The notes: generated by a model from the letters alone, not told the origin. DNA of 64,000 nucleotides from Candidatus Saccharimonadales bacterium (GCA_035697325.1 DASSDB010000002.1:91232-155231), one strand, 5' to 3'. Positions 39,774 to 61,759 are shown, counted from the stretch's first letter. Program-made: numbers and translations.

Positions 39774-39820
39774 GTAGATTTACGGCTTGGTTTATTGTAA
39801 CACAAAACAGAGGCGAGAGG

Positions 39821-39848
39821 TAGACTTTACCTCATTTTTTGCTATAAT
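39821..39848 (+). promoter_or_regulatory. Candidate promoter of pilin paralog P1 (leaderless)
   Basis: TAGACT-16 nt-TATAAT (39843-48). The ATG at 39856 is 7 nt after the -10 and has no SD. Confidence 0.4.
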
Positions 39849-39855
39849 TAAGACT

Positions 39856-40284
39856 ATGTGGTCTAAGCGCATAAAAACAATTCGCTTTTTGTTTTTGCTT
39901 GGCAGTCTCTTCCTTGCTATTGCTCTTTTGGCGGCTATTCCTAGCACTACTTTTGCTACTGGTTTTGACATGGGCATGCTTGATGGTGCTAACTCCGCCA
40001 GGGGCATCGACCAAGCCACGACACTGTTTGGCTCTACGGGTATTTTTACGACCATTAGCAATGTCATGCTATTTCTCGTAGGCGCCATTAGTGTGATCAT
40101 GGTTGTCATTGGTGGTATGCGCTATGTTATTTCCGGAGGAAATACAGCGAACGTCGGTGCAGCTAAAAACACCATTCTTTATGCTATTGTAGGGCTCGTG
40201 ATCTCTATTCTTGCCTATGCAGTTATTAATTTTGTTATCGGTAGTTTTGTTCCTGGTGGAGAAGTGAGCGGGACAAACGTATAG
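39856..40284 (+). CDS. VirB2/TrbC-like T4SS pilin-type protein, paralog P1
   Basis: Signal peptide (cleavage near TFA-TG), then two TM helices with the family motif AISVIMVVIGGMRYVISGGNTANVGAAKNTILYAIVGLVISILAYAVINFV. The internal ATG is preferred over the track start at 39787. Confidence 0.8.
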   Translation: MWSKRIKTIRFLFLLGSLFLAIALLAAIPSTTFATGFDMGMLDGANSARGIDQATTLFGSTGIFTTISNVMLFLVGAISVIMVVIGGMRYVISGGNTANVGAAKNTILYAIVGLVISILAYAVINFVIGSFVPGGEVSGTNV

Positions 40285-40301
40285 GGAAGTAGCGAGAAAC
40301 T

Positions 40302-40332
40302 TGTATCGGATCCACGATACATTTGTTTTTTT
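40302..40332 (+). terminator. Intrinsic terminator after P1
   Basis: TGTATCG-GATCCA-CGATACA followed by TTTGTTTTTTT. Confidence 0.75.
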
Positions 40333-40384
40333 ATAGTATTATGTTATTATATATACTGACCTAACCTACGTCACGGGAGACGGT

Positions 40385-40801
40385 ATGTCTTTGGATCTGA
40401 GAGTAGCCCCGTTCGAGTCCAACCCTCTCATGCAGTGGGCGCTCAAAACGGTAAAGGCGGCCATTCCGAGAGGATATGAAGCCGTATCACTCGTGGCCTA
40501 TCAAGATGATTTGCCGCGAGTCGACGCCACTGCTTATGCCCTCGACAGGGAGGGCAATGAAGTGGGTCGTTGCGCCCTCGTCCTTGAGGGCGAGGTATGG
40601 CAAGCTGCTTTCTTGCTGCTTTCCACTCAACTCATCATCGACAGGGTACTCAGGGATCGGTACGAGGACAGAAAGGTGGAGTACGAGGCTTACCAGGCTG
40701 AAGTGAGGCTCGCAAATGAGCCCTGGCAGGCAGCGAACGTCGACGTCAACTACATGCCAGATCGGGACCGGATAGGTATCGACTTGGTAATCTCGAGATA
40801 G
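40385..40801 (+). CDS. Hypothetical protein, 138 aa, GC-rich cassette
   Basis: ATG 4 nt after GGGAGACGG, own terminator. No family recognised. Line 40561-40620 is 36/60 GC. Confidence 0.55.
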   Translation: MSLDLRVAPFESNPLMQWALKTVKAAIPRGYEAVSLVAYQDDLPRVDATAYALDREGNEVGRCALVLEGEVWQAAFLLLSTQLIIDRVLRDRYEDRKVEYEAYQAEVRLANEPWQAANVDVNYMPDRDRIGIDLVISR

Positions 40802-40821
40802 CCCGAGAGTAGTACGGTCAC

Positions 40822-40868
40822 CCCTCGACGAAATGAACTGCTCTTTTAGTTCTTTCGTCGAGGGTTTC
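40822..40868 (+). terminator. Terminator of the 40385 cassette
   Basis: CCCTCGACGAAA / TTTCGTCGAGGG stem followed by TTTCAC. Confidence 0.6.
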
Positions 40869-40887
40869 ACCATATTTAGATGATGCA

Positions 40888-40930
40888 CCAAGAAAATAAG
40901 ATGATCCAAAAGATCATCTTATTTTCTTGG
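40888..40930. terminator. 19-bp perfect hairpin abutting the tRNA-Ser(TGA) 3' end
   Basis: CCAAGAAAATAAGATGATC-CAAAA-GATCATCTTATTTTCTTGG. It shares the outer 12 nt with the hairpin at 38120. Confidence 0.7.
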
Positions 40931-41017
40931 CGGAGAGAGTGGGATTCGAACCCACGGTGCCGTTGCCGGCACGACGGTTTTCAAGACCGTTACCTTCAAC
41001 CACTCGGTCATCTCTCC
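40928..41017 (-). tRNA. tRNA-Ser (anticodon TGA)
   Basis: Hand fold: GGAGAGA acceptor, loop CU-UGA-AA, long variable arm, encoded CCA. Confidence 0.9.
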
Positions 41018-41052
41018 AGGTTGCTTGGCCCATAATAACAGATACGGCCTTT

Positions 41053-41763
41053 TTAGTCGAGAGGCTGGCGAGCGATCGCTGCCACCCACACGTCAGTCGC
41101 GCCTGCTTCCCGAAGTAAACGAGCGGCTGCTTTTATTGTCGCACCCGTCGTTACAATGTCGTCAACGATCAAAATCGTTTTATTTTCACAGCTGCCCCGC
41201 GCCGCAAAAGCAAGTGCGGCCTGTTCTGATCGCTTTCGCTTTGTTTTTCCTGTTTGCACCGAGTGTGTTCGTCGTTCTAAAAGTCGCTCAGGTTTTCGAT
41301 TGTTCAGCTTGGCAAGCTGCCGGGCAATTAAGTATGTATGGTCATAGCCACGCTGGCGAATATGCGCAGGATTGCTAGGGATAGGGACAACGCTACATGC
41401 TTCGGGTAAAATACCAATCCTCTGGAACAGTAGGTCCGCAAGCACCCGGGAGGCCGCTCGTTTCCTTTGGAACTTGTAATCATTGGTGAGAAGAAGGAGC
41501 TCATCGGCACGCTCGCCGACATACCAGGCCCTCGAAAAGGGAGGTTGACACTCTTTGCAAACACCTTCACTAGAGCACACGCATCCGCATAGTATACAGG
41601 TGCTAAAATCCTCACTTATGATGTTATATTTACAATTATCGCATAAAAGCGCACCCGTTTTTCCGCAAGAATAACAGAGGTGTGGAGCGAGTGTGGAGAG
41701 AAGCATATCAATCATTGTGTTTTTTACGTTTTGCACATTCGTTTTATTGATTATACCGTACAT
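41053..41763 (-). CDS. comFC: ComF family protein (ComFC-type phosphoribosyltransferase with N-terminal zinc finger)
   Basis: CYSCGKTGALLCDNCKYN and CILCG...CKEC Cys clusters. PRTase motif ILIVDDIVTTGATI. Confidence 0.85.
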   Translation of the reverse strand: MYGIINKTNVQNVKNTMIDMLLSTLAPHLCYSCGKTGALLCDNCKYNIISEDFSTCILCGCVCSSEGVCKECQPPFSRAWYVGERADELLLLTNDYKFQRKRAASRVLADLLFQRIGILPEACSVVPIPSNPAHIRQRGYDHTYLIARQLAKLNNRKPERLLERRTHSVQTGKTKRKRSEQAALAFAARGSCENKTILIVDDIVTTGATIKAAARLLREAGATDVWVAAIARQPLD

Positions 41764-41823
41764 GTTAGTTATAATTGAAGGGACTATTTGTCAATAGAGC
41801 CTAGAGAAAAAGTGGAGGATATC

Positions 41824-42297
41824 ATGGCACGCAAACAAAATGACGATCTGTTGATCGAAGATGAACTGGCCGCCGCGTTCCTAAATGACGACGAGCTCAG
41901 CGAGCAGCAACAAGCGGCCGCTCCAGCAGCAGTAAACGATAACGCGGCATGGGAAGAGTCAGAAGAAGACTTCCCAGGACAACTTGCCGTTGATGTATAT
42001 GAAACCGACGAGAAACTCATTGTTAAAGCCCGCACCGCAGGTGTTAACAAAGAAGATCTCGACGTCAGTATCAGCGACGGAATTCTTACAATTAGCGGTA
42101 CGCTCTCAAGCGGAGACGACACTGAAGCGACCAACTGGCATATCCAGGAATGTTACTGGGGTGAATTTAGCCGTACGCTTGCGCTTCCAGTTCCTGTAAA
42201 GGAAGACGAGGTTGAAGCAGTTCTTAAAGATGGTGTACTTACCATCAGCTTCACCAAAGTCAAACAAGAACAAGCCAAAAAGATTACTATCCAGTAG
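41824..42297 (+). CDS. Hsp20/alpha-crystallin small heat-shock protein
   Basis: ACD pattern LAVDVYETDEKLIVKARTAGVNKEDLDVSISDGILTISG...FSRTLALPVPVKEDEVEAVLKDGVLTISF. The ATG at 41824 follows GGAGGA. Confidence 0.9.
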   Translation: MARKQNDDLLIEDELAAAFLNDDELSEQQQAAAPAAVNDNAAWEESEEDFPGQLAVDVYETDEKLIVKARTAGVNKEDLDVSISDGILTISGTLSSGDDTEATNWHIQECYWGEFSRTLALPVPVKEDEVEAVLKDGVLTISFTKVKQEQAKKITIQ

Positions 42298-42376
42298 TAA
42301 GAAAAAGTTTTCCCTATGTAAAAGCACCCCAATTGCGAGGAGAGGGGTGTTTTTATTTTATCGCCTCCCAGCACCT

Positions 42377-42413: not shown

Positions 42414-42427
42414 AATTTAGCTAGAAC

Positions 42428-42847
42428 CTAGGCGCCTGAACCGCTAGCCGAGAAGCTTGATACGACGAAATTGACCAACGCGTAAGCAAGAATTGATACG
42501 ACAATACCGATAACAGCGTAGAGAATCGTGTTCTTCGCGCTTGTTACCGCCGCCGAGTCACCATTTGACACGGTGTAGCGGATACCACCGATGATCAGCA
42601 TGATGACTGAAATCGCACCAATGATAAAGAGGAGCACGTTAGTAATGGTCTTAAAAATACCCTGGTCGCCGAATAGCTCGGCCTGCTGATCTTTACCTTT
42701 AGATGAATCTGCGCCATCCTGAAGACCTTTGTCGAATGCCGCATTTGCAGGGGTAGCCTGAAATACTGGGGCAACAAAGCTCACACCAAGCGCAAGTGCT
42801 GGTACGATCAATAAGCTTTGCAAACCTTTTTTGATTATACGTTTCAT
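42428..42847 (-). CDS. VirB2/TrbC-like pilin-type protein, paralog P2
   Basis: Signal peptide (ANA-AF) plus AISVIMLIIGGIRYTVSNGDSAAVTSAKNTILYAVIGIVVSILAYALVNFV. Confidence 0.8.
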   Translation of the reverse strand: MKRIIKKGLQSLLIVPALALGVSFVAPVFQATPANAAFDKGLQDGADSSKGKDQQAELFGDQGIFKTITNVLLFIIGAISVIMLIIGGIRYTVSNGDSAAVTSAKNTILYAVIGIVVSILAYALVNFVVSSFSASGSGA

Positions 42848-42920
42848 TGTTTATTCCTTTCTTAGGATTACTCTACCTTATGTTATATCAAACAGCCGTC
42901 GTTTTGTTAAGGCTTTAACC

Positions 42921-43283
42921 CTACTTAAATGATGTGACGACAAAGTTAACGATGGCATATGCCAAAATAGCAACGATCAGACCAATGACGGAATAAAGAA
43001 TGGTATCTTTGGCACCTTTAACTGCGCTTGTATCACCGTTTGAAGTCGCATAACGAATACCACCGATGACGATCATTATAACTGCGATTGCTCCGAGGAT
43101 GAAGAGAAGGATATTAACAACAGTCTTAAGGTTATCTTCTAGAGAAGTGCCGCCGTTACCACCCACGGCATTAACGCCACCCTGGATTTCGGATGCCGGG
43201 TCCGCATAGGTAAGCGATGGCATTAATACGATCGCACTGAGTGCCATAAATACCGTTACTATCGCGAGTTTGATTTTTTTCAT
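42921..43283 (-). CDS. VirB2/TrbC-like pilin-type protein, paralog P3
   Basis: Signal peptide (TYA-DP) plus AIAVIMIVIGGIRYATSNGDTSAVKGAKDTILYSVIGLIVAILAYAIVNFV. Confidence 0.8.
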   Translation of the reverse strand: MKKIKLAIVTVFMALSAIVLMPSLTYADPASEIQGGVNAVGGNGGTSLEDNLKTVVNILLFILGAIAVIMIVIGGIRYATSNGDTSAVKGAKDTILYSVIGLIVAILAYAIVNFVVTSFK

Positions 43284-43295
43284 AGTACCTCCTTT

Positions 43296-43676
43296 TTAAG
43301 CTCCGATAAATCTTCCTAATACGAAGTTGACAATAGCATACGACATAATTGCAATTACCAATCCGATAACCGAATAAAGAATCGTATCCTTTGCTTCCTT
43401 AACCTGGCTAGCATTTCCATTCGAAAGCGTGTAACGGATACCGCCCACGATAATCATAATCACCGCAATGATACCAACCACGAACAAAAGAATATTAATA
43501 ACAATGGTGATCATGTTCGTGGCGTTGTCGCCCTGAGCCTTACATACGGCAGCATCCGCATTTGAGGCACATTGGTCAAATACGTTTACCGCAGACGCCG
43601 AAGGGGTAAAAATAAATAATCCTCCGAGCCCTAGCGCCACCACGAATGCGCTTATAAGTTGTTTCCACTTTTTCAT
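43296..43676 (-). CDS. VirB2/TrbC-like pilin-type protein, paralog P4
   Basis: Signal peptide (ASA-VN), Cys pair in the mature N-terminus, IIAVIMIIVGGIRYTLSNGNASQVKEAKDTILYSVIGLVIAIMSYAIVNFV. Confidence 0.8.
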   Translation of the reverse strand: MKKWKQLISAFVVALGLGGLFIFTPSASAVNVFDQCASNADAAVCKAQGDNATNMITIVINILLFVVGIIAVIMIIVGGIRYTLSNGNASQVKEAKDTILYSVIGLVIAIMSYAIVNFVLGRFIGA

Positions 43677-43970
43677 TTAAAACCTCCCCAAGATAAATTG
43701 CGTAATAACGAATGCCATAATAATAACAACGAGTCCAACTACGGCATAAATGATCGCCTCACGAGCCCGCTTTGTATGTGATGGATTTGCCGTTGACGTC
43801 GTATAAAACAAGCCGGCGATAATAATAGCCAGCACACAAATAATACCCGCCCAGGTATATACCGTGGTTAGCACGGCACTCAGTGTCGCGTTCGGATCTG
43901 TCGCAGGGTTTTTAAGCCCAATTTCATCGGGTGTGATCTTATCGATTGCAAAAAGAAGAAATTGATTCAT
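43677..43970 (-). CDS. Divergent pilin-type paralog P5 without a recognisable signal peptide
   Basis: 97 aa. Keeps the two-TM core (GIICVLAIIIAGLFYTTSTANPSHTKRAREAIIYAVVGLVVIIMAFVITQF) but starts MNQFLLFAIDKITPDE. Abuts P4 and overlaps P6 by 1 nt. Confidence 0.7.
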   Translation of the reverse strand: MNQFLLFAIDKITPDEIGLKNPATDPNATLSAVLTTVYTWAGIICVLAIIIAGLFYTTSTANPSHTKRAREAIIYAVVGLVVIIMAFVITQFILGRF

Positions 43971-44392
43971 TACACAGCTCCCGCCACAATATTAACGATA
44001 GCTATTGAAAATATAGAGATTATCAAACCAATAACCGCGTTAAGAATGGTCTTGCGTGCCTTTACGATATCGTCGGGGCTACCCGTACTCGTAAGATACT
44101 TAAAACCACCCGCAATGATATAACCTACGGCGATATATCCGACAAGCTGGAGCATTACCTCAATAATATTAAGACCTATTTTTGCGATAAACGTCGGCAA
44201 TCCACCCACATCATTTGGATTTTTAATATCACAGCTATCGTTAATGATACCGCGATACCATGCCGGAAAGGTAAGAAGGCGATCGTTACAAGCTGCCATG
44301 GCCGGTTGTGGCGCAGCAATAGTAAGTGCTGTGCCCCCAAGACTTGCGGTAAATATAATTGCGGCTATCCAGTTACGAATTATCTTCTTCAT
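43970..44392 (-). CDS. Divergent pilin-type paralog P6
   Basis: Signal peptide (AMA-AC), Cys pair, core YIAVGYIIAGGFKYLTSTGSPDDIVKARKTILNAVIGLIISIFSIAIVNIV. Confidence 0.75.
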   Translation of the reverse strand: MKKIIRNWIAAIIFTASLGGTALTIAAPQPAMAACNDRLLTFPAWYRGIINDSCDIKNPNDVGGLPTFIAKIGLNIIEVMLQLVGYIAVGYIIAGGFKYLTSTGSPDDIVKARKTILNAVIGLIISIFSIAIVNIVAGAV

Positions 44393-44401
44393 ATATTCTC
44401 C

Positions 44402-44794
44402 TTATGCAAAAATGCCGCCAGGAATTAGGTAGTTCAGCACCAAATACATCAGGCCATAGGCGATTAACCCAATGACAACATTTCGAATAATCTCGATAGC
44501 TTTTTTGGTCTGTTCAGAGCTATCGCCGGCACTTGTGTAGAGGATAGAACCATATACAATACCGCCTACCGCAGCGATTCCTACGCCCGCCGTCATAATA
44601 TTAAGAACAATGAGCAAAACACCCCACACACCGTTTTCTTTAGCATTTGGCCCCGAGCTCGATTGGGGACAAGAAATGATAGCAGTTTGCGCACCGCCAC
44701 AACTCTCGGCCAATACAGCAGGTGCAGCAACGCCAGCCCCTACGAACGACGCGACAACGACAGCCAAACCAATGATTTTTTGTTTTATATTCAT
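44402..44794 (-). CDS. Divergent pilin-type paralog P7 (first gene of the array)
   Basis: Signal peptide (LAE-SC), Cys pair (SCGGAQTAIISC), core GIAAVGGIVYGSILYTSAGDSSEQTKKAIEIIRNVVIGLIAYGLMYLVLNYL. Confidence 0.7.
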   Translation of the reverse strand: MNIKQKIIGLAVVVASFVGAGVAAPAVLAESCGGAQTAIISCPQSSSGPNAKENGVWGVLLIVLNIMTAGVGIAAVGGIVYGSILYTSAGDSSEQTKKAIEIIRNVVIGLIAYGLMYLVLNYLIPGGIFA

Positions 44795-44930: not shown

Positions 44931-47651
44931 ATGGTGGAATTGCGAAAAGCCTTTCTGCCCGGTAGTATATCGGGACGGAAAATTCTTTTGTTCGCCACAA
45001 GTATGCTCGTGGCCGTCTTCGCATTGCTTGGCATTTCTCCCACTGCCTACGCAGCCGACGCTACCTGGCAGGGCAATTCTATAACCTATGCCCAAAAGCA
45101 ATATATTAAAACCGGAAATGCCGGCAGCAATGACCCTCGCGGTTTTGCCAAAGACACTCAAATATATGCCTACGTGGAGCCCATTGTATCGGGTTCTTCA
45201 AACCCAACCCAAAAAGCTCACCTAATCTATTTTGCTCCAGGTACAGACCCTACCAAGGCAACGACGGCATCGTATGTCGTGTACGATTACACGCCGCCAG
45301 ACAGCTACACCAATCCCTCAGGGGCGACGCAGATCACCCTTGATCCTCAACCGGCAAATGCCAACGAAAACACTACCTCTTGTGCGCTAGAAGGTATTGG
45401 CTGGATTGTGTGTCCAGTCACTAAATTTTTGGCCGGGGCCATGGACTGGATGTATGGCATTCTCGCCAGCTTCCTTACCGTGCGTCCAGTACAAACGAGC
45501 CAAGATAATTCACTTTTCCGCATTTGGGCCGTTATGCGAAACTTTGCTAACATCGTCTTCGTTATCGGCTTCCTCGTTATTATTTATTCGCAAATAACCA
45601 ACGCCGGTATCTCTAATTATGGTATAAAACGTTTGCTCCCGCGCCTTATCGCGGCGGCAATTTTGGTGAATTTATCATACTGGATATGCGCCATCGCGAT
45701 CGACGTCTCAAATATCTTAGGTAATTCCATACAGGAATTGTTTATCAGCCTGCGTAATGTATTGGTGGGCCGAGAAGGGAACAACTGGGACATTATCAGC
45801 TGGGAGAGTATCTCCAGTTTCATTCTTTCTGGCGGAACAGCGGCCGTACTTGCGGGTATCGGAGCAAATATTTTACTCGGCGGTACGATTACCGGTTCGA
45901 TCTTCATGCTCGTGCCGGTACTAGTAACGGTGCTCGTAGCCGTGTTGGTGGCACTGCTGGTTATGGCGCTTCGCCAAGCGCTTATTACTATACTAGTGAT
46001 CGTATCGCCGCTGGCATTCGTAGCGTACTTGCTACCAAATACCGAGAAATACTTTGAAAAGTGGCGCGAGCTCTTCATGACAATGCTGCTGCTTTTTCCG
46101 ATCTTTTCGGTTATTTTTGGTGGATCACAGCTGGCGGGTATGGCAATTATACAAAATGCCAATTCGATCAACCTCATTCTCCTTGGTATGGCCGTACAAG
46201 TTGCTCCAATTATTATTACGCCTTTACTTATTAAGTTCAGCGGATCACTACTTGGCCGCTTTGCCGGCATGGTCAACAACCCAAACAAGGGACTTATCGA
46301 CCGCACTCGCAACTGGGCAAAGGATCGTGCCGAAAACCAAAAAGCTCGCGTACTTGCTGGCACACCGCGTGCCGGCTGGCGTGGAGCCGCCACCAGGCGC
46401 TCGCAAAACATTGAAACCAAGCGCCGCAAGCGCGAGGGCTGGCGCGCAGCCAATACCGCGCTGGCTGATGCTGCGTGGGCTAATAGCGAAGAATACTCAA
46501 AAATTCACCAGGCCAACCAACGTGCCGCACTTTCTAAAGAAGCAGGTGAAACAGCCGCGCAAGTACGCTTTGAAACCGCCAAAACAACCAATGCCGCGTT
46601 GCAGCACATGGACGTTGAGGCGCGAGCTGCTAAATTGAATTTGGATGTTACCAAGGCTAAAGTAGACGCCAATTGGCAAGAATTGATGGCGGGTAAGAGA
46701 ACTAATGAAAACCTCCTCGACTTAGAGGCGCTGAATCCGGCAGAAGTTTCTCGTCGAGGTATTGGCAACTACCAGGCCTATCGCAACAATATGGTTGAAG
46801 CTATCAAACAAGCCTCGATCGATAATAACCTTGAAAAGCGCCGTGCCCACTCCGCTGAACATGTACGTCAAGAAGATATGACGAAGCTCATGCTTTCAGA
46901 CAACTTAATACGTGAACGTGCTAAGGGTATTGATCCACACGGTGCCGATACAGCCCTAGCAAACGCCGTTGCCGAAGATCGAACTGCCTTTGGTAAATCT
47001 GTGGAAGAAGCAAAGCATGTATTGAAGCACTTTAACGTCAGCGCCGAAAAGCGAGCTGACCTCTTAAGAGGTGAGACTATTCACGTAACCGATAGCTCGG
47101 GACACCCGCGTGACTTCAGCCTTAAGGATACGTTCATTACCGAGGCTGCAATTGAAATCCAGATGAAGGAAGGAAGCTTTAGACAGAGGGAAGATATTAT
47201 TGCCGAATCTGGTAAAGGCGGCAAGCTATATGCTCACCGAACCACTATTGGTGATGAAGCTAAGGCGAACAAGATCGGCGAAATGGCCGCTTACTTTGGT
47301 GGTTCCGCTATCGACCGTATTAAACAGGGTGAAATTAAGGGTAATGCTGGAATCGACCTGAACATTGCGCACACCATCCGTAGCGGTAAGCTCAAGGCCG
47401 CCCACCTTGCCGATATGGATTGGGAAGCCGTCCAGCGAGTGGTTAAGGTTGCACGAGCTAATGCACCTGCTGAATTCAATGCTGCACAGGTGGCCGAATA
47501 CGAGCGAAACCGCGCTCAACTGGGCACACTGGCGAAGGAAGCACTCACGAACACCAGCCTTCGTGGCCGCGTGGCAAGGAACTCTCTAGAACACTTACAA
47601 AACCTTATACAAGACTTTCCTCCACCTCCAACACCGCCTAATAACCCTTAG
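44931..47651 (+). CDS. VirB6/TrbL-like polytopic T4SS channel protein with ~430-aa hydrophilic C-terminal tail (paralog 1)
   Basis: Signal peptide, ectodomain of about 120 aa ending in CALEGIGWIVCPV, then six or more TM helices (LFRIWAVMRNFANIVFVIGFLVIIYSQ..., RLLPRLIAAAILVNLSYWICAIAIDVSN...). A charged helical tail ends in PPPPTPPNNP. Confidence 0.75.
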   Translation: MVELRKAFLPGSISGRKILLFATSMLVAVFALLGISPTAYAADATWQGNSITYAQKQYIKTGNAGSNDPRGFAKDTQIYAYVEPIVSGSSNPTQKAHLIYFAPGTDPTKATTASYVVYDYTPPDSYTNPSGATQITLDPQPANANENTTSCALEGIGWIVCPVTKFLAGAMDWMYGILASFLTVRPVQTSQDNSLFRIWAVMRNFANIVFVIGFLVIIYSQITNAGISNYGIKRLLPRLIAAAILVNLSYWICAIAIDVSNILGNSIQELFISLRNVLVGREGNNWDIISWESISSFILSGGTAAVLAGIGANILLGGTITGSIFMLVPVLVTVLVAVLVALLVMALRQALITILVIVSPLAFVAYLLPNTEKYFEKWRELFMTMLLLFPIFSVIFGGSQLAGMAIIQNANSINLILLGMAVQVAPIIITPLLIKFSGSLLGRFAGMVNNPNKGLIDRTRNWAKDRAENQKARVLAGTPRAGWRGAATRRSQNIETKRRKREGWRAANTALADAAWANSEEYSKIHQANQRAALSKEAGETAAQVRFETAKTTNAALQHMDVEARAAKLNLDVTKAKVDANWQELMAGKRTNENLLDLEALNPAEVSRRGIGNYQAYRNNMVEAIKQASIDNNLEKRRAHSAEHVRQEDMTKLMLSDNLIRERAKGIDPHGADTALANAVAEDRTAFGKSVEEAKHVLKHFNVSAEKRADLLRGETIHVTDSSGHPRDFSLKDTFITEAAIEIQMKEGSFRQREDIIAESGKGGKLYAHRTTIGDEAKANKIGEMAAYFGGSAIDRIKQGEIKGNAGIDLNIAHTIRSGKLKAAHLADMDWEAVQRVVKVARANAPAEFNAAQVAEYERNRAQLGTLAKEALTNTSLRGRVARNSLEHLQNLIQDFPPPPTPPNNP

Positions 47652-47959: not shown

Positions 47960-48105
47960 AGGTCTTAGCTCCCTAGTGAATATAGGCACCTTCACCCTAA
48001 CATAATAAACTAGAGTCAAAATAAAAAACTAATTAAACTTGCATTTCACCCGATAAAGTATATAATTACTCTGTCCAATCAGATACGCAACAGAGGCGGT
48101 GAAGT

Positions 48106-51798: not shown

Positions 51799-51801
51799 CA
51801 T

Positions 51802-53950: not shown

Positions 53951-54835
53951 GTGCCGCCAAATAATCAACAACCTCTACAACCAACCCCAGGGTCTGCTCC
54001 GAATATTCAGCAGCCTGTTCCTGCCGCCCCTCAAGTCCCCCTGCCACCCCAGCCTCAACAGCAGCCAAACGCCGTTGGGTCGGGTCAACAAGCTCAGCAG
54101 GCTAAAAAACCAGCAAACCCTAATACAACCCAAAATAGTCTTTTGATTTCTGAAATACGGGAAGGGATGGCGATTATGAGCGACGGCAGTTTTCGTGCGG
54201 TCGTGGCCTGTAAATCTATTAACTTCGACCTTATGAGCTCTCGCGAGCGGGAAGGTGTTGAGTATAGCTACCAGAACTTCCTTAACGCACTGTATTTTCC
54301 AGTACAGATCTTCATTCGCTCACAGCGTGTCGATATTGGTCCGTATCTTGATCGGCTTGCCAATATCCGCCGATCTCAAGATAATATGCTTCTGAATGTA
54401 CTAATGGATGATTATATCAATTTCATCGATGTGCTTTCGCAGGAAGCAAATATTATGGATAAGAGCTTTTTTATTGTTATTCCATACTATCCGACGGGCG
54501 ATCTTAATAATGTTGTTGAACAAAGTAAAGGCTTCTTTAGTAAGATCTTCGCCAAGGCTCCTACAACTGCGACCAAAATTGATAAGGTCGCCTACGACAA
54601 GGCGAAGGATGAGATCAAAAACCGTGTTGATTCTGTAATGAGCGGTTTGTTCCAGATTGGCATTAAGAGCGTTCAACTTAATACCAAGGAACTCGGTGAA
54701 CTTTATTACAATATGTACAACCCCGATACAGCCGTACGGGAACCACTTGGTGATTTTGAGAACGTAACAAGCATGTACGTTGCCAAGGGCCAGGGAGAAG
54801 CTCCTCGTCCACACCTGCAAGAAGGGGGTATGTAG
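53951..54835 (+). CDS. VirB4 N-terminal domain-like protein (separate ORF) with Pro/Gln-rich N-terminus
   Basis: LLISEIREGMAIMSDGSFRAVVACKSINFDLMSSREREGVEYSYQNFLNAL...ELGELYYNMYNP resembles the extreme N-terminal region of Gram-positive VirB4 ATPases (Orf16/TcpF/PrgJ type). Assignment from memory. Confidence 0.55.
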   Translation: MPPNNQQPLQPTPGSAPNIQQPVPAAPQVPLPPQPQQQPNAVGSGQQAQQAKKPANPNTTQNSLLISEIREGMAIMSDGSFRAVVACKSINFDLMSSREREGVEYSYQNFLNALYFPVQIFIRSQRVDIGPYLDRLANIRRSQDNMLLNVLMDDYINFIDVLSQEANIMDKSFFIVIPYYPTGDLNNVVEQSKGFFSKIFAKAPTTATKIDKVAYDKAKDEIKNRVDSVMSGLFQIGIKSVQLNTKELGELYYNMYNPDTAVREPLGDFENVTSMYVAKGQGEAPRPHLQEGGM

Positions 54836-54837
54836 AA

Positions 54838-56739
54838 ATGGCCAAGAAAAAACTTGATCCAATTGACATTGCTGCTCAGCAGCGCGCCCGCGAACAAGCC
54901 GAGGTAGAACAAGCGTTCTTAAAAGGAATGACGACGCTTCGTGACCTCATTGCGCCAAGTAGCATTGAAATTCACTCCAGTCACTTTAGGCTCGGGACGA
55001 AATATGGTCGTACGCTATATATTTATGGGTATCCGCGCCAGATCTACACGGGTTGGCTGAGCTCACTTATTAATATCGATGAAGTACTCGACATCAGTAT
55101 GTTTATTTATCCGGTTGAAAGCCAGGTGGTACTTAATAATCTTCGCAAAAAGGTGACTCAGCTTGAAGCAACCATGTCCATCAACAGTGAAAAGGGAAGA
55201 ACTCGTGATCCAGGGCTTGAGGCAGCCTTGCAAGATGCCGAGGAACTACGCGATCAGTTACAAGTGGGTGCCGAACGCTTTTTCCGCTATGGCCTGTATG
55301 TCACCTTATACGCCGATAGCATGGACGAGCTGAGCTTTGTACAGCACAAAATTGAAACGATATTCGGTCAGCAGTTGATCTTCAGCAAAGTCGCTTCCTC
55401 ACAGCAGGAGCAAGGGTTAAATAGTACGATTCCTCAGATGACCGACCAATTGCAAATTCGGCGCAATATGAACACCGGCGCAATCAGTACTAGCTTCCCA
55501 TTCACAAGTGCTGATCTAACCCAAGAAAAGGGCGTATTATACGGTATAAACATGCACAACAACGGATTGGTTATTTTTGATCGGTTCTCTCTTGAAAATG
55601 CCAATATGGTAGTGTTTGCAAAATCTGGTGCCGGTAAGTCGTTCACTGTAAAGCTTGAGGCACTTCGCAGCATGATGGTTGGCTGCGACGTGATTATCAT
55701 CGACCCTGAAAACGAATATCAAAAGCTCTCTGATGCGGTAGGGGGAAGTTATATTCGTCTTAGCCTTAGCGCGGATACACGTATTAATCCATTTGATCTT
55801 CCTAGGGTTATCGACAGTGATGAAGCAGATGATGCGCTTCGCGCCAACCTTGTGACACTTCACGGCTTGTTCCGGCTGATGCTGGGAGGAACGCAATCAA
55901 CCGCGAATGGGCAGATTATGTCTGCCCTCACGCCAGCCGAAGAGGCCGACCTTGATCAAGCTCTTATCGATACGTACGCGCGTGCCGGTATTACCAGTGA
56001 CCCGCTTACGCATCACTCAAAGCCCCCTACAATCGCCGACTTATACGACACACTGCTCCATATGGGCGGCACTGGCCCAGCGCTGGCGCAACGCTTGCGC
56101 AAGTATACCAGTGGAACCTTCGCCGGTATTTTCAGCCAGCAGTCAAACATCGACATCAACAACAATATGGTCGTCTTCAACATCCGTGACCTTGAAGATG
56201 AACTTCGTCCAGTAGCTATGTATATCGTACTATCGCACATTTGGAATATTACCAGGACCGACCAGCGAAAGCGCATGCTTATCGTGGACGAGGCGTGGCA
56301 GCTCATGAAATACGATGACTCTGCAAACTTCCTCTTTAGCCTCGCTAAGCGTGCTCGTAAATATTACCTTGGACTTACAACTATTACGCAGGACGTTGAG
56401 GACTTTATGGGAAGTAAAATGGGACGTGCGATTGTCGCCAACTCCTCTATGCAACTTCTCTTGAAGCAATCATCGAGTGCCGTTGATGTGCTTTCCGACG
56501 TCTTTAAGTTAACAGAGGAAGAGCGCAAACGTCTCGCTAACTTTCCGGTTGGACAAGGTTTATTCTTTGCCGGTCAAAACCATGTTCACATTCAAATCGT
56601 CGCCAGCCAAACCGAGACGGGACTTATTACCACTAATCCAGCGGCGGCGCAGCCTCAGGCGCCACAACCCCCACAGCAGAATCCCGGTGAGCCGATGGCA
56701 ACCAACGGCTACATGAATCCTGGCGAATTCAGCGTATAA
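54838..56739 (+). CDS. virB4: VirB4-family T4SS ATPase (main body)
   Basis: LRDLIAPSSIEIHSSHFRLGTKYGRTLYIYGYPRQIYTGWLSSL, Walker A FAKSGAGKSF, Walker B RMLIVDEAWQL. ATG 9 nt after AGGGGG. Confidence 0.88.
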   Translation: MAKKKLDPIDIAAQQRAREQAEVEQAFLKGMTTLRDLIAPSSIEIHSSHFRLGTKYGRTLYIYGYPRQIYTGWLSSLINIDEVLDISMFIYPVESQVVLNNLRKKVTQLEATMSINSEKGRTRDPGLEAALQDAEELRDQLQVGAERFFRYGLYVTLYADSMDELSFVQHKIETIFGQQLIFSKVASSQQEQGLNSTIPQMTDQLQIRRNMNTGAISTSFPFTSADLTQEKGVLYGINMHNNGLVIFDRFSLENANMVVFAKSGAGKSFTVKLEALRSMMVGCDVIIIDPENEYQKLSDAVGGSYIRLSLSADTRINPFDLPRVIDSDEADDALRANLVTLHGLFRLMLGGTQSTANGQIMSALTPAEEADLDQALIDTYARAGITSDPLTHHSKPPTIADLYDTLLHMGGTGPALAQRLRKYTSGTFAGIFSQQSNIDINNNMVVFNIRDLEDELRPVAMYIVLSHIWNITRTDQRKRMLIVDEAWQLMKYDDSANFLFSLAKRARKYYLGLTTITQDVEDFMGSKMGRAIVANSSMQLLLKQSSSAVDVLSDVFKLTEEERKRLANFPVGQGLFFAGQNHVHIQIVASQTETGLITTNPAAAQPQAPQPPQQNPGEPMATNGYMNPGEFSV

Positions 56740-56751: not shown

Positions 56752-59304
56752 ATGGAAACCAAGACTCCAAATACTAGGGAAGAACAGGATCAAGCCCACA
56801 ACCCTTCTCAAAGGAATATTGATCGTGAGTTCCAGCATATCGCCGACAACAATACGTTCGACGACATGATGAATAGCAATGGTCTTGGTCAAGAGCTCAA
56901 GGATATGGAGCAGCGTGTCGGCAAAGAAGCGGGGAATGCTGACAATGGAAGTTCGAATAACGCTCCAGACGCATCGAAAAACATCAGCAATGCGAAATCC
57001 AGCGAACAAGCCTGGAATACGGACGTATCTGCGGGCAATAAATCCGCTAAACAGAAGCAGGGATTTGGGTCACGCGTAAAGGGCATTTTCAAGAAACAGC
57101 TTCCTACGGCACTCGTTGGAGGTGGATTACTGACCGGTGGTGGGTTGCTTGGCTTCTTTGGCCTTACGCTTATGCCGGTTACTATAGCCGAACACTTCAC
57201 CAATGACACGAACGATGTCAATGACTCAAGCCAGCACAAGTCACTCAACCTTATTGGTAAACAGCTTGGCGGTGACGCGCGCAAAAAGCTAAGTATTTGC
57301 AATAAAGCTATTTCAATCCGCTGCAAATTTAATTCGATGGATAAAGACCTGGTAGCCAAGTACGAAGAGAAGGGCTTTAAATTTGGCGAAAAGCAGGTAA
57401 GCACAGACGGCAAGCGCGTAATGTTTACGTCCATCGAATTTCCGACAGGGGAAGTTGCCCATAACGTACAAGAACTCACGGCCATTTTAAAGAACTCAGC
57501 AGTTGCCAACGCCGCTTTTAACGCCGTGTACAGCCTTAAGAATTCTCTATTCTTGGTGGGAAATTTCTTTAAGGGAGTTTTAACAAGCTTGAATCTTACT
57601 AAACAGAAAAAAATTGAAGGAAAAAACAAGGAGGAAGCGGACAAATCGTTCGAGGACTCGGCAAAAGGCGAAAAGGGGACCGTCAGTACGGAGTCCGTCG
57701 CAAAACAAGCCGGCGATAACGCGAGTGAGGAGGCTAAGAAGGATGCCCAGGCGGCCACAGACGCCGGGAATGATACGTCGAGACAAATAAATGAGGCGAT
57801 CGCCAAAGGCTCCAAGCTAAAGTCGTTATCCTTGAAGATTACGAATGCTTTGGCAATACCTCAGCTGGCGTGTCTTACCTATAATATGTCGAGCTTCATA
57901 GCCACCATGGCAAAAATCAAAAAAGCTATGCGCTTTGCGGCATTTGCCATGATATTTCTCACGATGGCAAGTGCAATAAAAGCCAATGCCTCTACTGATG
58001 CCGAGGTGACGAAGGGAATGAGTATTCTTGCGCCATCGACCTACCCTCAAAAAGTTGAAGATCCTGAAACGGGAGAAATGATAGATAATCCTAATATCGG
58101 CAAAAATGCGCTGGATGCCGAGGCCTATAAAGTGGTGGCCTACGGTGATCAGATAAATCTTACAGGACTCGCTACCCGATTCTTTATCGCTAGCGGATTC
58201 CTTGGTGTTCTCGAAAAAATTGTCACGTGGCTTAACGACAATATTGGAAAAGAAACGATTAAGCTCACCTGTAAAGCGGTAAATAATAAGGTCGTCCAGA
58301 TCATTAGCTTTTTGGCCGCACCAATTTTCAGTGCAGTTATCCTTGGTATTACCAGCGTGCTACCTATTGAAGAGTGGGCAGCCGAACTTGTAAACGTAGC
58401 GATTGATGCCGCGGCAGGTGTCGATCTTACGACAGGCGTTACTGGAGTGGACGCAGGAAACGTCATATTTATCGGTGCCGCTGTTATTTTGGGAACGACG
58501 GCTATGAAATTCGGGCTAAAACCAGGAAAGCTTGCTGCTATTAAAGCAAACATCGCGGCAAACAACGAGCTTAATCAGCAGGACATAGCCATGAAAACAT
58601 ACGAAGCTTCAAAAACACCTTTTGATATTAATAATCGCTACTCATTCTTAGGTGCCATGGCGACATCACTCGCAGACTACATGCCTTCTATTCAGCAGCC
58701 GTTCATATCGACAATTGGGAAGACCTTTGCAGCCATTCCAAATTCGCTAACCATGCTGACAAATAACACTAAAGCAGCATACAGTATGCCCACGGCAAAC
58801 TATAGCGAGACTCGGTTTAGCCAGTGTAAAGATGAGGTGTACGCGACATTGAAGGATAAAATGGACCCTGATATGTTTTGCGCCGTACGATACGTACCTC
58901 ATGAATACGTTGATTCGGACGTCGTTCTTGATTATATGGAAAGCAATAATCAAATTGATGAAGTCTCGGGTAGTCCTAAGCCAGATACATACCTTGATAA
59001 ATACATGAAATACTGTGTCAATCGCGAAGATCCGTGGGGTAGTACAAGTGTCGCAGCCGAAGAACAAACGGATGAAGCAACGTGGTATACCGGCGAAAAA
59101 TGCATGGACGACACAACCGAGAATAAAATGTCGAGCGAATACAATGGCTATCTCATTTCTCAGACAAACCAAGATGAAGCAGGCTCAGGATCAACGGCCA
59201 CCTCAGCCTACTCCGACGACCCAGGCAAAGCCATGGCAGATCTTTCTACACCACAGGCACTTTCACTAGGAATGGCATATGCAATGGGAGGACTCAGCCA
59301 GTGA
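56752..59304 (+). CDS. 850-aa polytopic membrane protein of unknown function
   Basis: Hydrophilic N-terminus, at least six hydrophobic helices and large loops. The TGA stop overlaps the GTG start of the hydrolase gene (GTGA). No family recognised. Confidence 0.7.
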   Translation: METKTPNTREEQDQAHNPSQRNIDREFQHIADNNTFDDMMNSNGLGQELKDMEQRVGKEAGNADNGSSNNAPDASKNISNAKSSEQAWNTDVSAGNKSAKQKQGFGSRVKGIFKKQLPTALVGGGLLTGGGLLGFFGLTLMPVTIAEHFTNDTNDVNDSSQHKSLNLIGKQLGGDARKKLSICNKAISIRCKFNSMDKDLVAKYEEKGFKFGEKQVSTDGKRVMFTSIEFPTGEVAHNVQELTAILKNSAVANAAFNAVYSLKNSLFLVGNFFKGVLTSLNLTKQKKIEGKNKEEADKSFEDSAKGEKGTVSTESVAKQAGDNASEEAKKDAQAATDAGNDTSRQINEAIAKGSKLKSLSLKITNALAIPQLACLTYNMSSFIATMAKIKKAMRFAAFAMIFLTMASAIKANASTDAEVTKGMSILAPSTYPQKVEDPETGEMIDNPNIGKNALDAEAYKVVAYGDQINLTGLATRFFIASGFLGVLEKIVTWLNDNIGKETIKLTCKAVNNKVVQIISFLAAPIFSAVILGITSVLPIEEWAAELVNVAIDAAAGVDLTTGVTGVDAGNVIFIGAAVILGTTAMKFGLKPGKLAAIKANIAANNELNQQDIAMKTYEASKTPFDINNRYSFLGAMATSLADYMPSIQQPFISTIGKTFAAIPNSLTMLTNNTKAAYSMPTANYSETRFSQCKDEVYATLKDKMDPDMFCAVRYVPHEYVDSDVVLDYMESNNQIDEVSGSPKPDTYLDKYMKYCVNREDPWGSTSVAAEEQTDEATWYTGEKCMDDTTENKMSSEYNGYLISQTNQDEAGSGSTATSAYSDDPGKAMADLSTPQALSLGMAYAMGGLSQ

Positions 59305-60491
59305 TAAAATTATCAAAAAAAATAACGTCGATCGTGCTTGCATCCTTAATTGTCAGTTCCATCTTTACGGGATGGGCGCATGCTGAAGGAATCGACCAGC
59401 AATTTTACTCTGGTAATGATATTCTTTTTTATGATCCTAGCGCGACATGCGTTCCTGGTACAAGCGGCTCCGTTACGCCTGGCAGTGCGGCAAATCCGGC
59501 TCCAGCGGACTTTCCTAAAACGGTTTGGTCATTCCTCCTTGGCAAAGGCCTTACCGCAGAGCAAGCTGCTGGAGTTATGGGAAACATCCAGCAAGAATCT
59601 ACTTACAAGGGCTATCCTTTCAATCCTGAAGCAGAAGAAAAGCCAGGCACTGGCACAGGTGGTTATGGTATTGTGCAATGGACAGGTCCGCGCCGCCAGA
59701 GCCTTAACGCCGCTGCCGCAAAGCAAGGTGTTCCCGTGTCGAGTCTCGCATTTCAGCTTGAGTATCTTTACCAAGAAAGCAACGCTCGAACCGCTAAAGC
59801 ATCGTATGGTGGCGGTAATGAATGGGACGGACTAAAAAAGCAAGCGACGATTATCCAGGCGACAGTATACTGGCATGATAATTTTGAGCGATCAGCAGAT
59901 TCGCCCGAAGCCGTCCGAACCGTTCGTGGCGGCTATGCCCAAAAGTGGTATAACGAGTTTAATGGCAAGGTTGGACCAGGAAGCTCCGCCGGCTGCGGTG
60001 TCGCCGATACGTCATCACTGACCGCAACTGCGAAATCGTATGCTTGGCCCGACTATCGAGGTCTTACCATCGTCGCCAAGCCCGAGTATGTGACGGCACT
60101 CAATAAAGCACGGTCGGAAAGACGCTATATTGGAGGAATCAGTTACCCGGGAATCGACTGTGGTGGTTTTGTAACAACCGTCATGTACGACTCTGGTTTC
60201 GAAAAAGCCTACAATTCAAATGCTCGCGGCGGAGCAACTCCCGCGCAAAAAGCATGGCTTGATAAAAACTGGACTAACCTTGGGAATGGCGCTTCTATAA
60301 ACGTCGGCGACCTTCGGGCGGGAGACGTTGCAATGCTTCCTGGCCACACATATGTCTATGTTGGAGACAAAGGCAAAAAGCCGGAAGGATTTGATAGCGT
60401 CATCGCCTCAGCATCGCTTGACGAGCGCGCTCCAATGGCTGGACGTGAGAAAATTACCGCATCCGACACGACATGGTATCGAAAGAAATAG
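59301..60491 (+). CDS. Secreted two-domain peptidoglycan hydrolase (lysozyme-like N-domain + NlpC/P60-type C-domain)
   Basis: Signal peptide (AHA-EG). GLTAEQAAGVMGNIQQES...GYGIVQWTGPRR resembles the phage-tail-tip-lysozyme-type domain. GIDCGGFVTTVMY...LPGHTYVYVG provides a Cys/His papain-like dyad. Confidence 0.75.
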   Translation: MIKLSKKITSIVLASLIVSSIFTGWAHAEGIDQQFYSGNDILFYDPSATCVPGTSGSVTPGSAANPAPADFPKTVWSFLLGKGLTAEQAAGVMGNIQQESTYKGYPFNPEAEEKPGTGTGGYGIVQWTGPRRQSLNAAAAKQGVPVSSLAFQLEYLYQESNARTAKASYGGGNEWDGLKKQATIIQATVYWHDNFERSADSPEAVRTVRGGYAQKWYNEFNGKVGPGSSAGCGVADTSSLTATAKSYAWPDYRGLTIVAKPEYVTALNKARSERRYIGGISYPGIDCGGFVTTVMYDSGFEKAYNSNARGGATPAQKAWLDKNWTNLGNGASINVGDLRAGDVAMLPGHTYVYVGDKGKKPEGFDSVIASASLDERAPMAGREKITASDTTWYRKK

Positions 60492-60498
60492 GAGGAAT

Positions 60499-61128
60499 AT
60501 GACACCGACATTGTTTACACGACACAGAATACTCATTATCAGCCTTCTGGTTATAGCTGTCATCGTCATACCTGTTTTCTACTTTGTTTACACATCGATC
60601 GAGAGGGCTGGAAAAACCCAAGTGACGCTTATCGCGCTTCCGGAAGACGCTTCACTTACTATCGATGGCAAACCGACAGGTCCAGGAACGCTCTACCTTA
60701 AGCCCGGCTCTTATACCATCAAAGGCGAGAAGAATGGTTTTACAACCTACGAGCACAGAGAAGTCATCGAAAACGATAACCGAACGATCACCGTAGTCCT
60801 CAACCCTGTTTCAGATGAAGCAAAAAAATGGACACAGCAGAATCAGACCAAATACCTTGAAATAGAAGGAAAAGCCGGCTTAGCCGCCAACCAAGAGGGC
60901 GAGGCATTCCGCAAGGAAAACCCTATTGTGAACGACCTCCCTTACAGTAATTATTTATATACGATTGGATACCAAAACGATAATTCAGACCCTTCCGGAA
61001 ATTCCATTATCGTCACAATTGACGCCCCAAGCGGCTATCGAAATGCCGCCGTACGACAGATACGCGCACTTGGCTATGACCCCGCCACATTAAAAATAGA
61101 ATTTAGAAACTACGAAAGCCCATTCTAA
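60499..61128 (+). CDS. PEGA-domain membrane-anchored protein
   Basis: ATG after GGAGGAA. TM helix ILIISLLVIAVIVIPVFYFVY. PEGA-like LPEDASLTIDGKPTGPGTLYLKPGSYTIKGEKNGFTTYEHREV. Confidence 0.7.
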   Translation: MTPTLFTRHRILIISLLVIAVIVIPVFYFVYTSIERAGKTQVTLIALPEDASLTIDGKPTGPGTLYLKPGSYTIKGEKNGFTTYEHREVIENDNRTITVVLNPVSDEAKKWTQQNQTKYLEIEGKAGLAANQEGEAFRKENPIVNDLPYSNYLYTIGYQNDNSDPSGNSIIVTIDAPSGYRNAAVRQIRALGYDPATLKIEFRNYESPF

Positions 61129-61129
61129 T

Positions 61130-61759
61130 ATGAACAAAAGAATTATCATCACAATAGTAATCGTCGTGGCACTTCTTATTGCTGCTGCCAGTGTCACTTT
61201 TTATCTGCTTTCTTTTCGAAACGTGACCTTCACATTCAAAAAAACGGACCTTACGGCGAATATTTATCGTTCGGACGATACGGATAAAAAAAATAAGCTC
61301 GCCGATGTAAAAAATAATGAAACCATACGGCTCCAAGAAGGTAATTACGCAGCCTTCGCTTCGGGCGATAATTACGACCGAGCAGCGGTTTACTTTTCCG
61401 TTAACAAGGGAGATGCAACCGTCACTATTGACCCGAGCTATTCGGATACGTATCTGAAACGCGCACTTACGGGAGAACTGCCGGCCATAAAGGCCGCACT
61501 CATCAAAGCATTTCCTTTTGTTGCGACATCATTCGATATAAATGATGGCAAGCTCTACAAGGAAGGGGAGTGGTATGCCACAGCCCTCACGCAACGTCCT
61601 GCCGACCCACGCGACGAAGGCGACGTTTACTACACAATACTAAAAAAAGAAAACGATACGTGGACAGTCATCGGAAAGCCTAGCCTTGTGCTTACAACTG
61701 TCGACTTCAAAGATGTCCCTGCCGACATCATCAAGGACGCCAATCATATTGGTGAATAG
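61130..61759 (+). CDS. Bitopic membrane protein, unknown function
   Basis: N-terminal TM helix IIITIVIVVALLIAAASVTFYLL plus a roughly 180-aa external domain. Last gene of the plus-strand block. Confidence 0.65.
   Translation: MNKRIIITIVIVVALLIAAASVTFYLLSFRNVTFTFKKTDLTANIYRSDDTDKKNKLADVKNNETIRLQEGNYAAFASGDNYDRAAVYFSVNKGDATVTIDPSYSDTYLKRALTGELPAIKAALIKAFPFVATSFDINDGKLYKEGEWYATALTQRPADPRDEGDVYYTILKKENDTWTVIGKPSLVLTTVDFKDVPADIIKDANHIGE

Follow-up and report, generated by a model that had tools for sequence, protein, structure and literature searches.

The stretch of DNA analysed here, 64,000 nucleotides from an uncultured Candidatus Saccharimonadales bacterium (GCA_035697325.1, DASSDB010000002.1:91232-155231; hereafter the window), carries between 39.8 and 61.8 kilobases (kb) the core chromosomal type IV secretion system (T4SS) of the Saccharibacteria (class Saccharimonadia), and this locus is not a mobile element. 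Saccharibacteria, also called TM7, are ultrasmall bacteria that live on other bacteria, and all of them carry an origin-proximal T4SS cluster without a relaxase. The cluster in the window is real, but it is another orthologous instance of one that earlier work has described and has found essential in a relative grown in culture. That the locus is this system, that it is non-conjugative, and that it builds a pilus and serves the interface with a host is, taken as a single joint claim that leaves the direction of transport aside, highly probable. A first-pass annotation of the window had proposed a T4SS-derived machine and had suspected that similar loci exist in reduced-genome bacteria; such loci are indeed published for Saccharibacteria and for Patescibacteria more widely (PMC10633639, PMC12102498, PMC12857230). 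Its interpretation is right but not new, because the observation and the interpretation are both in the literature.

From recF to the seventh pilin, the gene order and predicted content of the window match SEML1_0004-0024 of Candidatus Southlakia epibionticum ML1 (PMC10633639). In that genome dnaA-dnaN-recF is followed by a bitopic exported protein, a PEGA protein, a multi-domain wall hydrolase, a large membrane protein, VirB4, a TrsD-like protein of about 293 amino acids (aa), PrgI, a VirB6-like, an NTF2-like and again a VirB6-like protein, six pilins, Hsp20, ComFC, a tRNA-Ser and the seventh pilin. The comparison with ML1 rests on published gene tables, whereas synteny at the level of sequence was followed in 80 other Saccharimonadia species: these are the best 80 of at least 554 VirB4 relatives in a species-representative genome collection, searched by tblastn with all window genes, and they are labelled mostly Saccharibacteria or Saccharimonadales, the rest being generic, Patescibacteria-group, other or unclassified metagenome-assembled genomes (MAGs). 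Some details set the window apart from ML1. Its second VirB6 comes in two pieces of 667 and 355 aa, its 850-aa protein is without the DD-peptidase domain at the C-terminus of SEML1_0007, its hydrolase has two catalytic domains where that of ML1 has three, and it has extra lineage-specific small open reading frames (ORFs) at 47.7-48.6 kb. Wang et al. (2023, Cell) described an "apparent T4SS (SEML1_0006-0019)", closest to Gram-positive conjugative systems, with essential pilins and no recognisable coupling or relaxase proteins, and showed by transposon sequencing (Tn-seq) in ML1 that the T4SS is needed for epibiotic growth; in their Tables S1 and S2 nearly all cluster genes are essential, with comFC (SEML1_0021, K02242), the NTF2-like gene and the seventh pilin listed as non-essential (PMC10633639).

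The phylum-wide survey of Quinonero-Coronel et al. (2025) describes a monophyletic VirB4 clade related to the mating-pair formation class MPF-FATA, with TrsD, PrgI and VirB6 encoded near virB4, proximity to dnaA/dnaN, VirB2 arrays of 2-11 genes with a mean identity of about 25%, rare relaxases, and type IV coupling proteins (T4CPs) distant from virB4 (PMC12102498). The same features characterise the locus in the window, which has a separate TrsD-like gene upstream of virB4, PrgI and VirB6 nearby, a pilin array, no relaxase or T4CP in the cluster, and dnaA/dnaN close at hand. Judged by its sequence, the VirB4 falls in the Patescibacteria clade with MPF-FATA affinity. Nothing essential differs from the survey, which has few VirB8 homologues outside the class ABY1 (PMC12102498), whereas the window has a structural NTF2-like candidate.

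The VirB4 ATPase (54838-56739, plus strand) is of the MPF-FATA-like CD1110 family, scoring 373.7 bits against a cut-off of 325 for NCBIfam NF045971. It matches the VirB4 ATPase domain in PDB 4AG5 (E 4e-49), and the Walker A (SGAGKS) and Walker B (IVDEAW) motifs that were noticed at first pass are both intact in the translation. The ORF covers positions 172-732 of the 752-position CD1110 model; since it starts at model position 172, the N-terminal domain is supplied by a separate protein. This is the TrsD-like product of the upstream 294-aa ORF (53951-54835, plus strand), equivalent to the VirB4 N-terminal domain. Its frame differs from that of virB4, its matches to NF041427 (TrsD, E 1e-4, sub-threshold) and to positions 233-279 of VirB4_plasma (the mycoplasma VirB4) are weak, and precomputed gene calls assign it PF26593 (TraC-like). 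The earlier description of a VirB4 encoded as two ORFs has to be revised accordingly: the pair consists of conserved TrsD-like and VirB4 genes and is no broken gene, as the two lie in different frames and are separate ORFs in 79 of 79 related loci, and the TrsD-VirB4 pairing is the commonest feature of Patescibacteria T4SSs (PMC12102498). Next to them lies the gene of the PrgI/VirB3-like protein (52891-53916, plus strand; counterpart SEML1_0010), which has a long C-terminal extension and whose assignment is confirmed by PF12666 (E 1.4e-12).

Across the class the order of genes is the same: pilins on the minus strand, the first VirB6 gene (VirB6a), a variable slot, the second VirB6 gene (VirB6b), PrgI, TrsD, VirB4, the large protein, the hydrolase, the PEGA protein, the 209-aa protein, then recF and dnaN on the minus strand. 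Of the 56 species whose flanking sequence reaches far enough, 55 have dnaN in the opposite orientation, 5.0-9.2 kb downstream of virB4. The window's VirB4 is 84-94% identical to that of its best 80 relatives. Median identity is 88% for VirB4, 67% for both DnaN and TrsD, 58% for RecF, 53% for PrgI, 47% for VirB6b, 41-50% for the pilins, 33% for the hydrolase and 24% for the 850-aa protein. VirB4 is more conserved than DnaN (54838-56739 against 62806-63909) in 57 of 57 genome pairs, with a median difference of 20 identity points, a comparison that favours VirB4 somewhat because the loci were ranked by VirB4 similarity. These figures point to very strong purifying selection on VirB4. The pilins, the N-terminal domains of the VirB6 proteins, the hydrolase and the 850-aa protein all diverge fast, and a tightly constrained motor combined with fast-changing exported parts is the pattern to be expected where the outer face of a machine is in contact with a partner that changes.

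The non-mobile nature of the locus is borne out by its surroundings. Outside the locus, every ORF of at least 80 aa in a greedy non-overlapping set was either profile-scanned or recognised by eye from its N-terminal sequence; upstream, pyrG, NRAMP, nrdAB, groES/EL, an ABC transporter, tsaC/tsaD and valS were recognised by eye, and G6PD, PGI, a Mur ligase and FemAB were confirmed by Pfam. The profile scans yielded housekeeping families or no family at all, and the ORFs identified by eye were housekeeping genes too. Neither the scanned ORFs of the 64-kb window nor about 8.5 kb past dnaN contain a relaxase, a T4CP or an integrase, and the few unclassified upstream ORFs matched no family of these three kinds. 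Between 36 and 64 kb, a search for att-like direct repeats gave only short chance-level matches besides those due to the paralogy of the VirB6 genes. In base composition the locus differs little from the genes around it. On the far side the locus abuts recF and dnaN (61761-63909, minus strand), and on a contig with an identical dnaN this gene is followed by a 91-aa ORF, dnaA, rpmH, rnpA, yidC, jag and glycosyltransferases, so that dnaA lies just past the window and the region right of dnaN is a canonical oriC neighbourhood. The first-pass annotation had likewise found no such genes or flanking repeats in the window and, apart from one GC-rich insert, a base composition matching the housekeeping genes, and had named a relaxase, T4CP and integrase just outside it as the sign of an ordinary integrative and conjugative element (ICE); that scenario is excluded on both sides within reach. 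Its description of a chromosomally fixed machine therefore holds, given the oriC housekeeping context, the lack of relaxase, T4CP and integrase within reach, and synteny in at least 55 Saccharimonadia species.

All seven two-transmembrane pilin-type proteins that had been proposed match PF18895 (T4SS_pilin, Pfam), with E-values from 3e-12 to 9e-6. Six of the seven pass its gathering cut-off, the protein encoded at 44402-44794 scoring 26.1 against 26.6 bits, and three of them match TrbC/VirB2 as well, below threshold. An array of six divergent VirB2/TrbC-like genes occupies 42428-44794 on the minus strand (42428-42847, 42921-43283, 43296-43676, 43677-43970, 43970-44392 and 44402-44794). The seventh pilin is an outlier at 39856-40284 on the plus strand (PF18895 E 2e-7), in an ORF that opens at 39787 and has its likely ATG at 39856. 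A signal peptide and two transmembrane segments are found in all but one, a 97-aa pilin without leader. Pairwise identity among the seven averages 33% and ranges from 19 to 52%. In S. epibionticum the counterparts of the six arrayed pilins, SEML1_0014-0019, are all essential, and that of the seventh, SEML1_0024, is non-essential (PMC10633639).

The two VirB6/TrbL-like proteins are paralogues, sharing 48% identity over the transmembrane core (E 1e-81). VirB6a (906 aa; 44931-47651, plus strand; counterpart SEML1_0013) consists of a variable exported N-terminal domain, about six transmembrane segments and a long hydrophilic C-terminal domain. VirB6b (counterpart SEML1_0011) comes in two parts, a 667-aa N-terminal part (49795-51798, plus strand) with the variable exported domain and the transmembrane core, and a 355-aa C-terminal part (51802-52869, plus strand) with the last transmembrane segment and the hydrophilic domain. 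Taken singly, the VirB6-like proteins have no significant Pfam or NCBIfam match, TrbL reaching E 0.71 with the 667-aa part (profile positions 4-175 of 215), and sequence and profile searches of the PDB with the family returned coiled-coil noise only. Within the family, PF04610 (TrbL) is matched by 18 of 46 aligned members, at best with E 2e-6. A model of the core built with AlphaFold2 (AF2; mean confidence score, pLDDT, 79.5) has as its five top PDB matches chains of TrwI/VirB6 from R388, with E 0.04-0.2 and TM-scores of 0.3-0.43. The family profile and, more weakly, the predicted fold support the VirB6 assignment of both paralogues. The first-pass claim of two VirB6/TrbL-like modules stands, with family support and paralogy behind it; the 355-aa ORF belongs to the second VirB6.

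The two parts of VirB6b lie in one frame and are parted by an in-frame TAG at 51796-51798, with a Shine-Dalgarno sequence (GGGAGGA) and a restart ATG at the split (51796-51804). Orthologues of VirB6b are continuous in 11 of the 13 loci having both halves, the other two being cross-hits between paralogues. The closest relative, locus L082 from another metagenome, has a VirB6b of 92% identity with TAA at the same codon and the same Shine-Dalgarno sequence and ATG (L082 5037-5045). Because L082 shares this arrangement, the split looks like a maintained lineage-specific gene fission and not like a pseudogene, an error or decay. A sequencing or assembly error at 51796 was considered and rejected, as the 355-aa product is also among the gene calls of a Logan contig from a separate assembly and L082 has TAA; recoding of the TAG was likewise rejected, as the relative's TAA argues against codon-specific readthrough.

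Three ORFs occupy the variable slot between the VirB6 genes (47.7-49.8 kb): a small two-transmembrane ORF of 105 aa (47702-48019, minus strand), an ORF of 172 aa (48106-48624, plus strand) and a bitopic protein of 312 aa (48840-49778, plus strand). None of them has a tblastn match in the 80 related loci sampled, and all three are kept at the same place in the sister lineage L082 with 77-88% identity. The 105-aa ORF, found in L082 only (80% identity), and the 172-aa ORF (77% in L082) are lineage-specific and match no family; the latter has no transmembrane segment and lies in a patch of GC 0.62 against a background of about 0.47. The slot as a whole is the "GC-rich insert" of the first-pass annotation, and its foreign origin was considered and rejected: its genes are conserved in the sister lineage, and the largest of them sits where S. 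epibionticum has its NTF2-like gene.

The 312-aa protein has about ten relatives among 1.84 billion representative proteins. Its transmembrane segment is weakly hydrophobic, and AF2 folds its C-terminal 180 residues into an NTF2-like alpha+beta domain with pLDDT above 90. Foldseek matches of this domain are all of the NTF2 superfamily, including the IcmL-like lpg0120 (5CNL), CagV/VirB8 (6IQT) and many unrelated NTF2 proteins, and every E-value exceeds 0.001; Pfam and NCBIfam searches give no VirB8 match at the level of sequence. Neither does the protein show sequence kinship to the NTF2-like proteins of the 80 related loci. The gene in the same slot of S. epibionticum, SEML1_0012, is NTF2-like, with ECOD 4EC6 as best template, and is non-essential (PMC10633639). 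On its predicted fold and its position, the 312-aa protein is a candidate VirB8/TraM-like component. The template 4EC6 is a domain of TraM from pIP501.

Downstream of virB4, the 850-aa protein (56752-59304, plus strand; counterpart SEML1_0007), first described as polytopic, is a conserved membrane or exported protein. It is 100% identical to NCBI VFH06_01195 from a Candidatus Saccharimonadales MAG, and neither Pfam nor sequence and profile searches of the PDB match the protein or its family. In this family a core at about aa 140-770 is conserved, and the modules at the C-terminus are interchangeable. The window's protein carries no such module; homologues of about 1000 aa have an M15-like peptidase motif, and two distant orthologues, P0146 (in locus L013) and P0147, have an Exo_endo_phos (EEP) domain beside M23 or CHAP. 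Its sequence family thus suggests a scaffold that in orthologues carries cell-wall hydrolase or EEP modules. The adjoining gene (59301-60491, plus strand; counterpart SEML1_0006) encodes the secreted two-domain peptidoglycan hydrolase recognised at first pass, an analogue of VirB1 and CwlT with a phage-tail-lysozyme-type muramidase domain (Phage_lysozyme2, PF18013, E 3e-31; phi29 gp13, 3CSQ, E 2.5e-6) and a sub-threshold NlpC/P60 match (PF00877, E 0.0017). The bitopic PEGA protein (60499-61128, plus strand; PF08308, E 8.5e-5; counterpart SEML1_0005) likewise agrees with the first reading; its gene probably starts at the ATG at 60499, in keeping with a gene call of 209 aa. A second bitopic protein of 209 aa (61130-61759, plus strand) has an N-terminal transmembrane segment, appears to be exported, and has homologues in 15 loci; its positional counterpart SEML1_0004 is essential. 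Single-sequence searches of Pfam and NCBIfam, even with E up to 10, gave nothing for the 850-, 355-, 332-, 209-, 172-, 138- and 105-aa proteins.

With the Gram-positive conjugative T4SSs (Con proteins of ICEBs1, Tn916, Prg of pCF10, CD1110 of CTn2) the locus shares a CD1110-family VirB4, PrgI and TrsD; it differs from them in being fixed at oriC and in lacking relaxase, T4CP, oriT and integrase. The order of VirB4, large membrane protein and two-domain muramidase/peptidase recalls conE-conG-cwlT of ICEBs1. Unlike the window, Gram-positive conjugative systems have no VirB2-like pilins (PMC12857230). Likeness of another kind is offered by ComB of Helicobacter pylori and the archaeal Ced system, which have no relaxase or adjacent coupling protein and import with VirB2-, VirB4- and VirB6-like parts (PMC11665869). 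ComB, however, is a diderm MPF-T system with VirB7-10, and the window's resemblance to the DNA importer Ced amounts to generic ATPase similarity (CedB 46 bits against 700, CedD 26.5 against 600 in NCBIfam).

Homologous T4SSs suggest how such a machine might work. The hydrolase would locally open the epibiont's own wall; VirB3, VirB6 and possibly the VirB8-like protein would form a membrane platform; and VirB4 with TrsD would pull pilins from the membrane and, using VirB6 as the platform, polymerise them into a pilus or tube. The pilins, the N-terminal domains of the VirB6 paralogues and the 850-aa protein, as fast-evolving exported parts, would face the host. The function of the T4SS is not self-transfer: it serves the interface between epibiont and host, and Tn-seq in S. 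epibionticum shows it to be needed for growth on the host.

As to what passes through it, we tentatively favour, with rather less than even confidence, a conduit that works independently of a T4CP and imports host-derived macromolecules such as nucleic acids. Import is favoured because no coupling protein is associated with the cluster and the distant one in S. epibionticum is dispensable, because these organisms cannot make nucleotides, because importers without a T4CP exist (ComB, Ced), and because two orthologues of the 850-aa protein carry Exo_endo_phos next to M23 or CHAP. The dispensability of ComEC argues in the same direction, since with comEC dispensable nucleotides must come another way (PMC11665869, PMC12857230). 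A more specific version, which we consider plausible yet doubtful, is a feeding tube: a VirB2-type pilus built by a T4SS of Gram-positive type would pierce the host and import nucleic acids or other macromolecules as an essential nutrient route, and the EEP-bearing orthologues of the 850-aa protein might process nucleic acid at the portal. This idea has already been voiced in reviews and in a 2026 preprint, and the window adds circumstantial support only. A 2025 T4SS review counts these systems as "perhaps the most exciting newcomers" and speculates that a pilus could act as a conduit, either for uptake or for signals (PMC12857230), a 2024 perspective calls their role "completely unknown" and suggests nucleotide acquisition (PMC11665869), and the preprint reports that another Patescibacterium has tubular structures and takes up host RNA (bioRxiv 10.64898/2026.06.21.733656).

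Several points weigh against reading the locus as a pilus-building importer at the host interface. Essentiality comes from a different genus (S. epibionticum), and the pilus-building role is here read from the genes, by analogy with homologous T4SSs. The VirB6 and VirB8-like assignments are predictions that combine weak structural matches (Foldseek E all above 0.001) with transitive family hits. Instead of a nuclease, the EEP domain could be an effector of phosphatase or sphingomyelinase type, and it is absent from the window's own 850-aa protein. Exporters without a T4CP exist as well (Bordetella Ptl, Brucella VirB), and import therefore does not follow from the lack of a T4CP. Finally, a VirD4-like T4CP may sit elsewhere in the genome; such proteins are common in Patescibacteria but lie far from virB4 (PMC12102498).

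The strongest alternative to import is export, in which hydrolases, nucleases or toxins are delivered into or onto the host, recruited either by a distant T4CP or without a dedicated one nearby. Among non-conjugative T4SSs no role is commoner, and export has been speculated for Saccharibacteria (PMC10633639, PMC11665869); moreover the M23, CHAP, M15-like and Exo_endo_phos modules of the 850-aa orthologues could act on the host envelope, and fast evolution of the exported parts fits an arms race with the host. We nevertheless think it rather unlikely, as there is no T4CP in or near the locus (scanned window and right flank), no protein with a known T4SS signal emerged as a candidate effector, and the T4CP homologue of S. 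epibionticum is non-essential while its T4SS is essential (PMC12102498). An organelle for contact alone, with the VirB2-type pilus as an adhesin or host-recognition filament and seven pilins broadening the host range, is improbable. The seven pilins are indeed divergent, and arrays of 2-11 pilins, common in Saccharimonadia, have been compared with the variable pilins found in Bartonella and Anaplasma (PMC12102498). Yet Saccharibacteria already have two type IV pili for adhesion and motility (PMC12206443), an ATPase as strongly conserved as this one, together with two large and conserved proteins of VirB6 channel type, points to more than adhesion, and simple redundancy is hard to reconcile with six arrayed pilins that are each essential in S. 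epibionticum. That the locus is an ordinary ICE, or the decaying remnant of one, inserted near tRNA-Ser genes is close to untenable: VirB4, TrsD, PrgI and the CwlT-like hydrolase do have homologues among the parts of Gram-positive conjugative elements and tRNA-Ser genes do lie inside the locus, but besides the missing mobility genes and att repeats the scanned window and right flank hold no replication or partition genes, composition is close to that of the neighbours, neither position nor order varies with respect to dnaN in 55 of 56 related species, selection is stronger on VirB4 than on DnaN, and the genes compared have no inactivating frameshifts, the sole in-frame stop being the maintained VirB6b split.

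The system is the first T4SS reported to be essential for its own carrier bacterium, the only monoderm T4SS that has VirB2-type pilins, and a leading candidate for the means by which the ultrasmall and auxotrophic Patescibacteria exploit their hosts; the literature of 2023-2026 contains all three points. The window contributes modest new details, namely the maintained split of a VirB6 paralogue, the NTF2-like VirB8-type candidate in the variable slot, the nuclease/phosphatase-type fusions in the 850-aa family, core genes oriented head-on with respect to oriC, and conservation of VirB4 above that of DnaN, and these could aid the design of structural or genetic work on the system.

Interspersed among the parts of the locus, as already noted at first pass, are two genes of other kinds. 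A ComFC-like protein with a phosphoribosyltransferase domain (41053-41763, minus strand; PF00156, E 7e-11) is no part of the T4SS. The suggestion that it links the locus to DNA uptake is not supported by the literature: in S. epibionticum comFC is non-essential and comEC dispensable whereas the T4SS is essential (PMC10633639, PMC12857230), and a functional link was rejected on the ground that the counterpart gene is non-essential. The small heat-shock protein Hsp20 (41788-42297, plus strand; PF00011, E 5e-19; counterpart SEML1_0020) has 63-87% identity in related loci. The left edge (37546-41017) has three tRNA-Ser genes (CGA, GCT and TGA) and a tRNA-Arg interleaved with small genes. Two of the former, tRNA-Ser(GCT) at 39681-39773 and tRNA-Ser(TGA) at 40928-41017, both on the minus strand and both called by ARAGORN and Rfam, flank the seventh pilin; the second has the position of SEML1_0022, S. 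epibionticum too having a tRNA-Ser at the matching place. In the whole window ARAGORN finds five tRNA genes and Rfam, at the gathering threshold, three.

The core T4SS genes, on the plus strand from 44931 on, converge on the minus-strand recF-dnaN (to 63909) and so run head-on to the fork leaving oriC. This arrangement is kept in 55 of the 56 related species with enough flank, and it is unusual given that the operon is long and, in a relative, essential. Between 39.5 and 50 kb, promoter-like sites are not enriched (17 against 14.1 ± 3.9 in shuffles), and terminator-like sites are commoner than in shuffles (22 against 11.0 ± 3.2). A second GC-rich patch (0.54) lies far from the locus, at 19000-22000 of the window, with ORFs at 19584-20078 (plus strand) and 20209-21267 (minus strand) that have no family match, and it adjoins groES/groEL.

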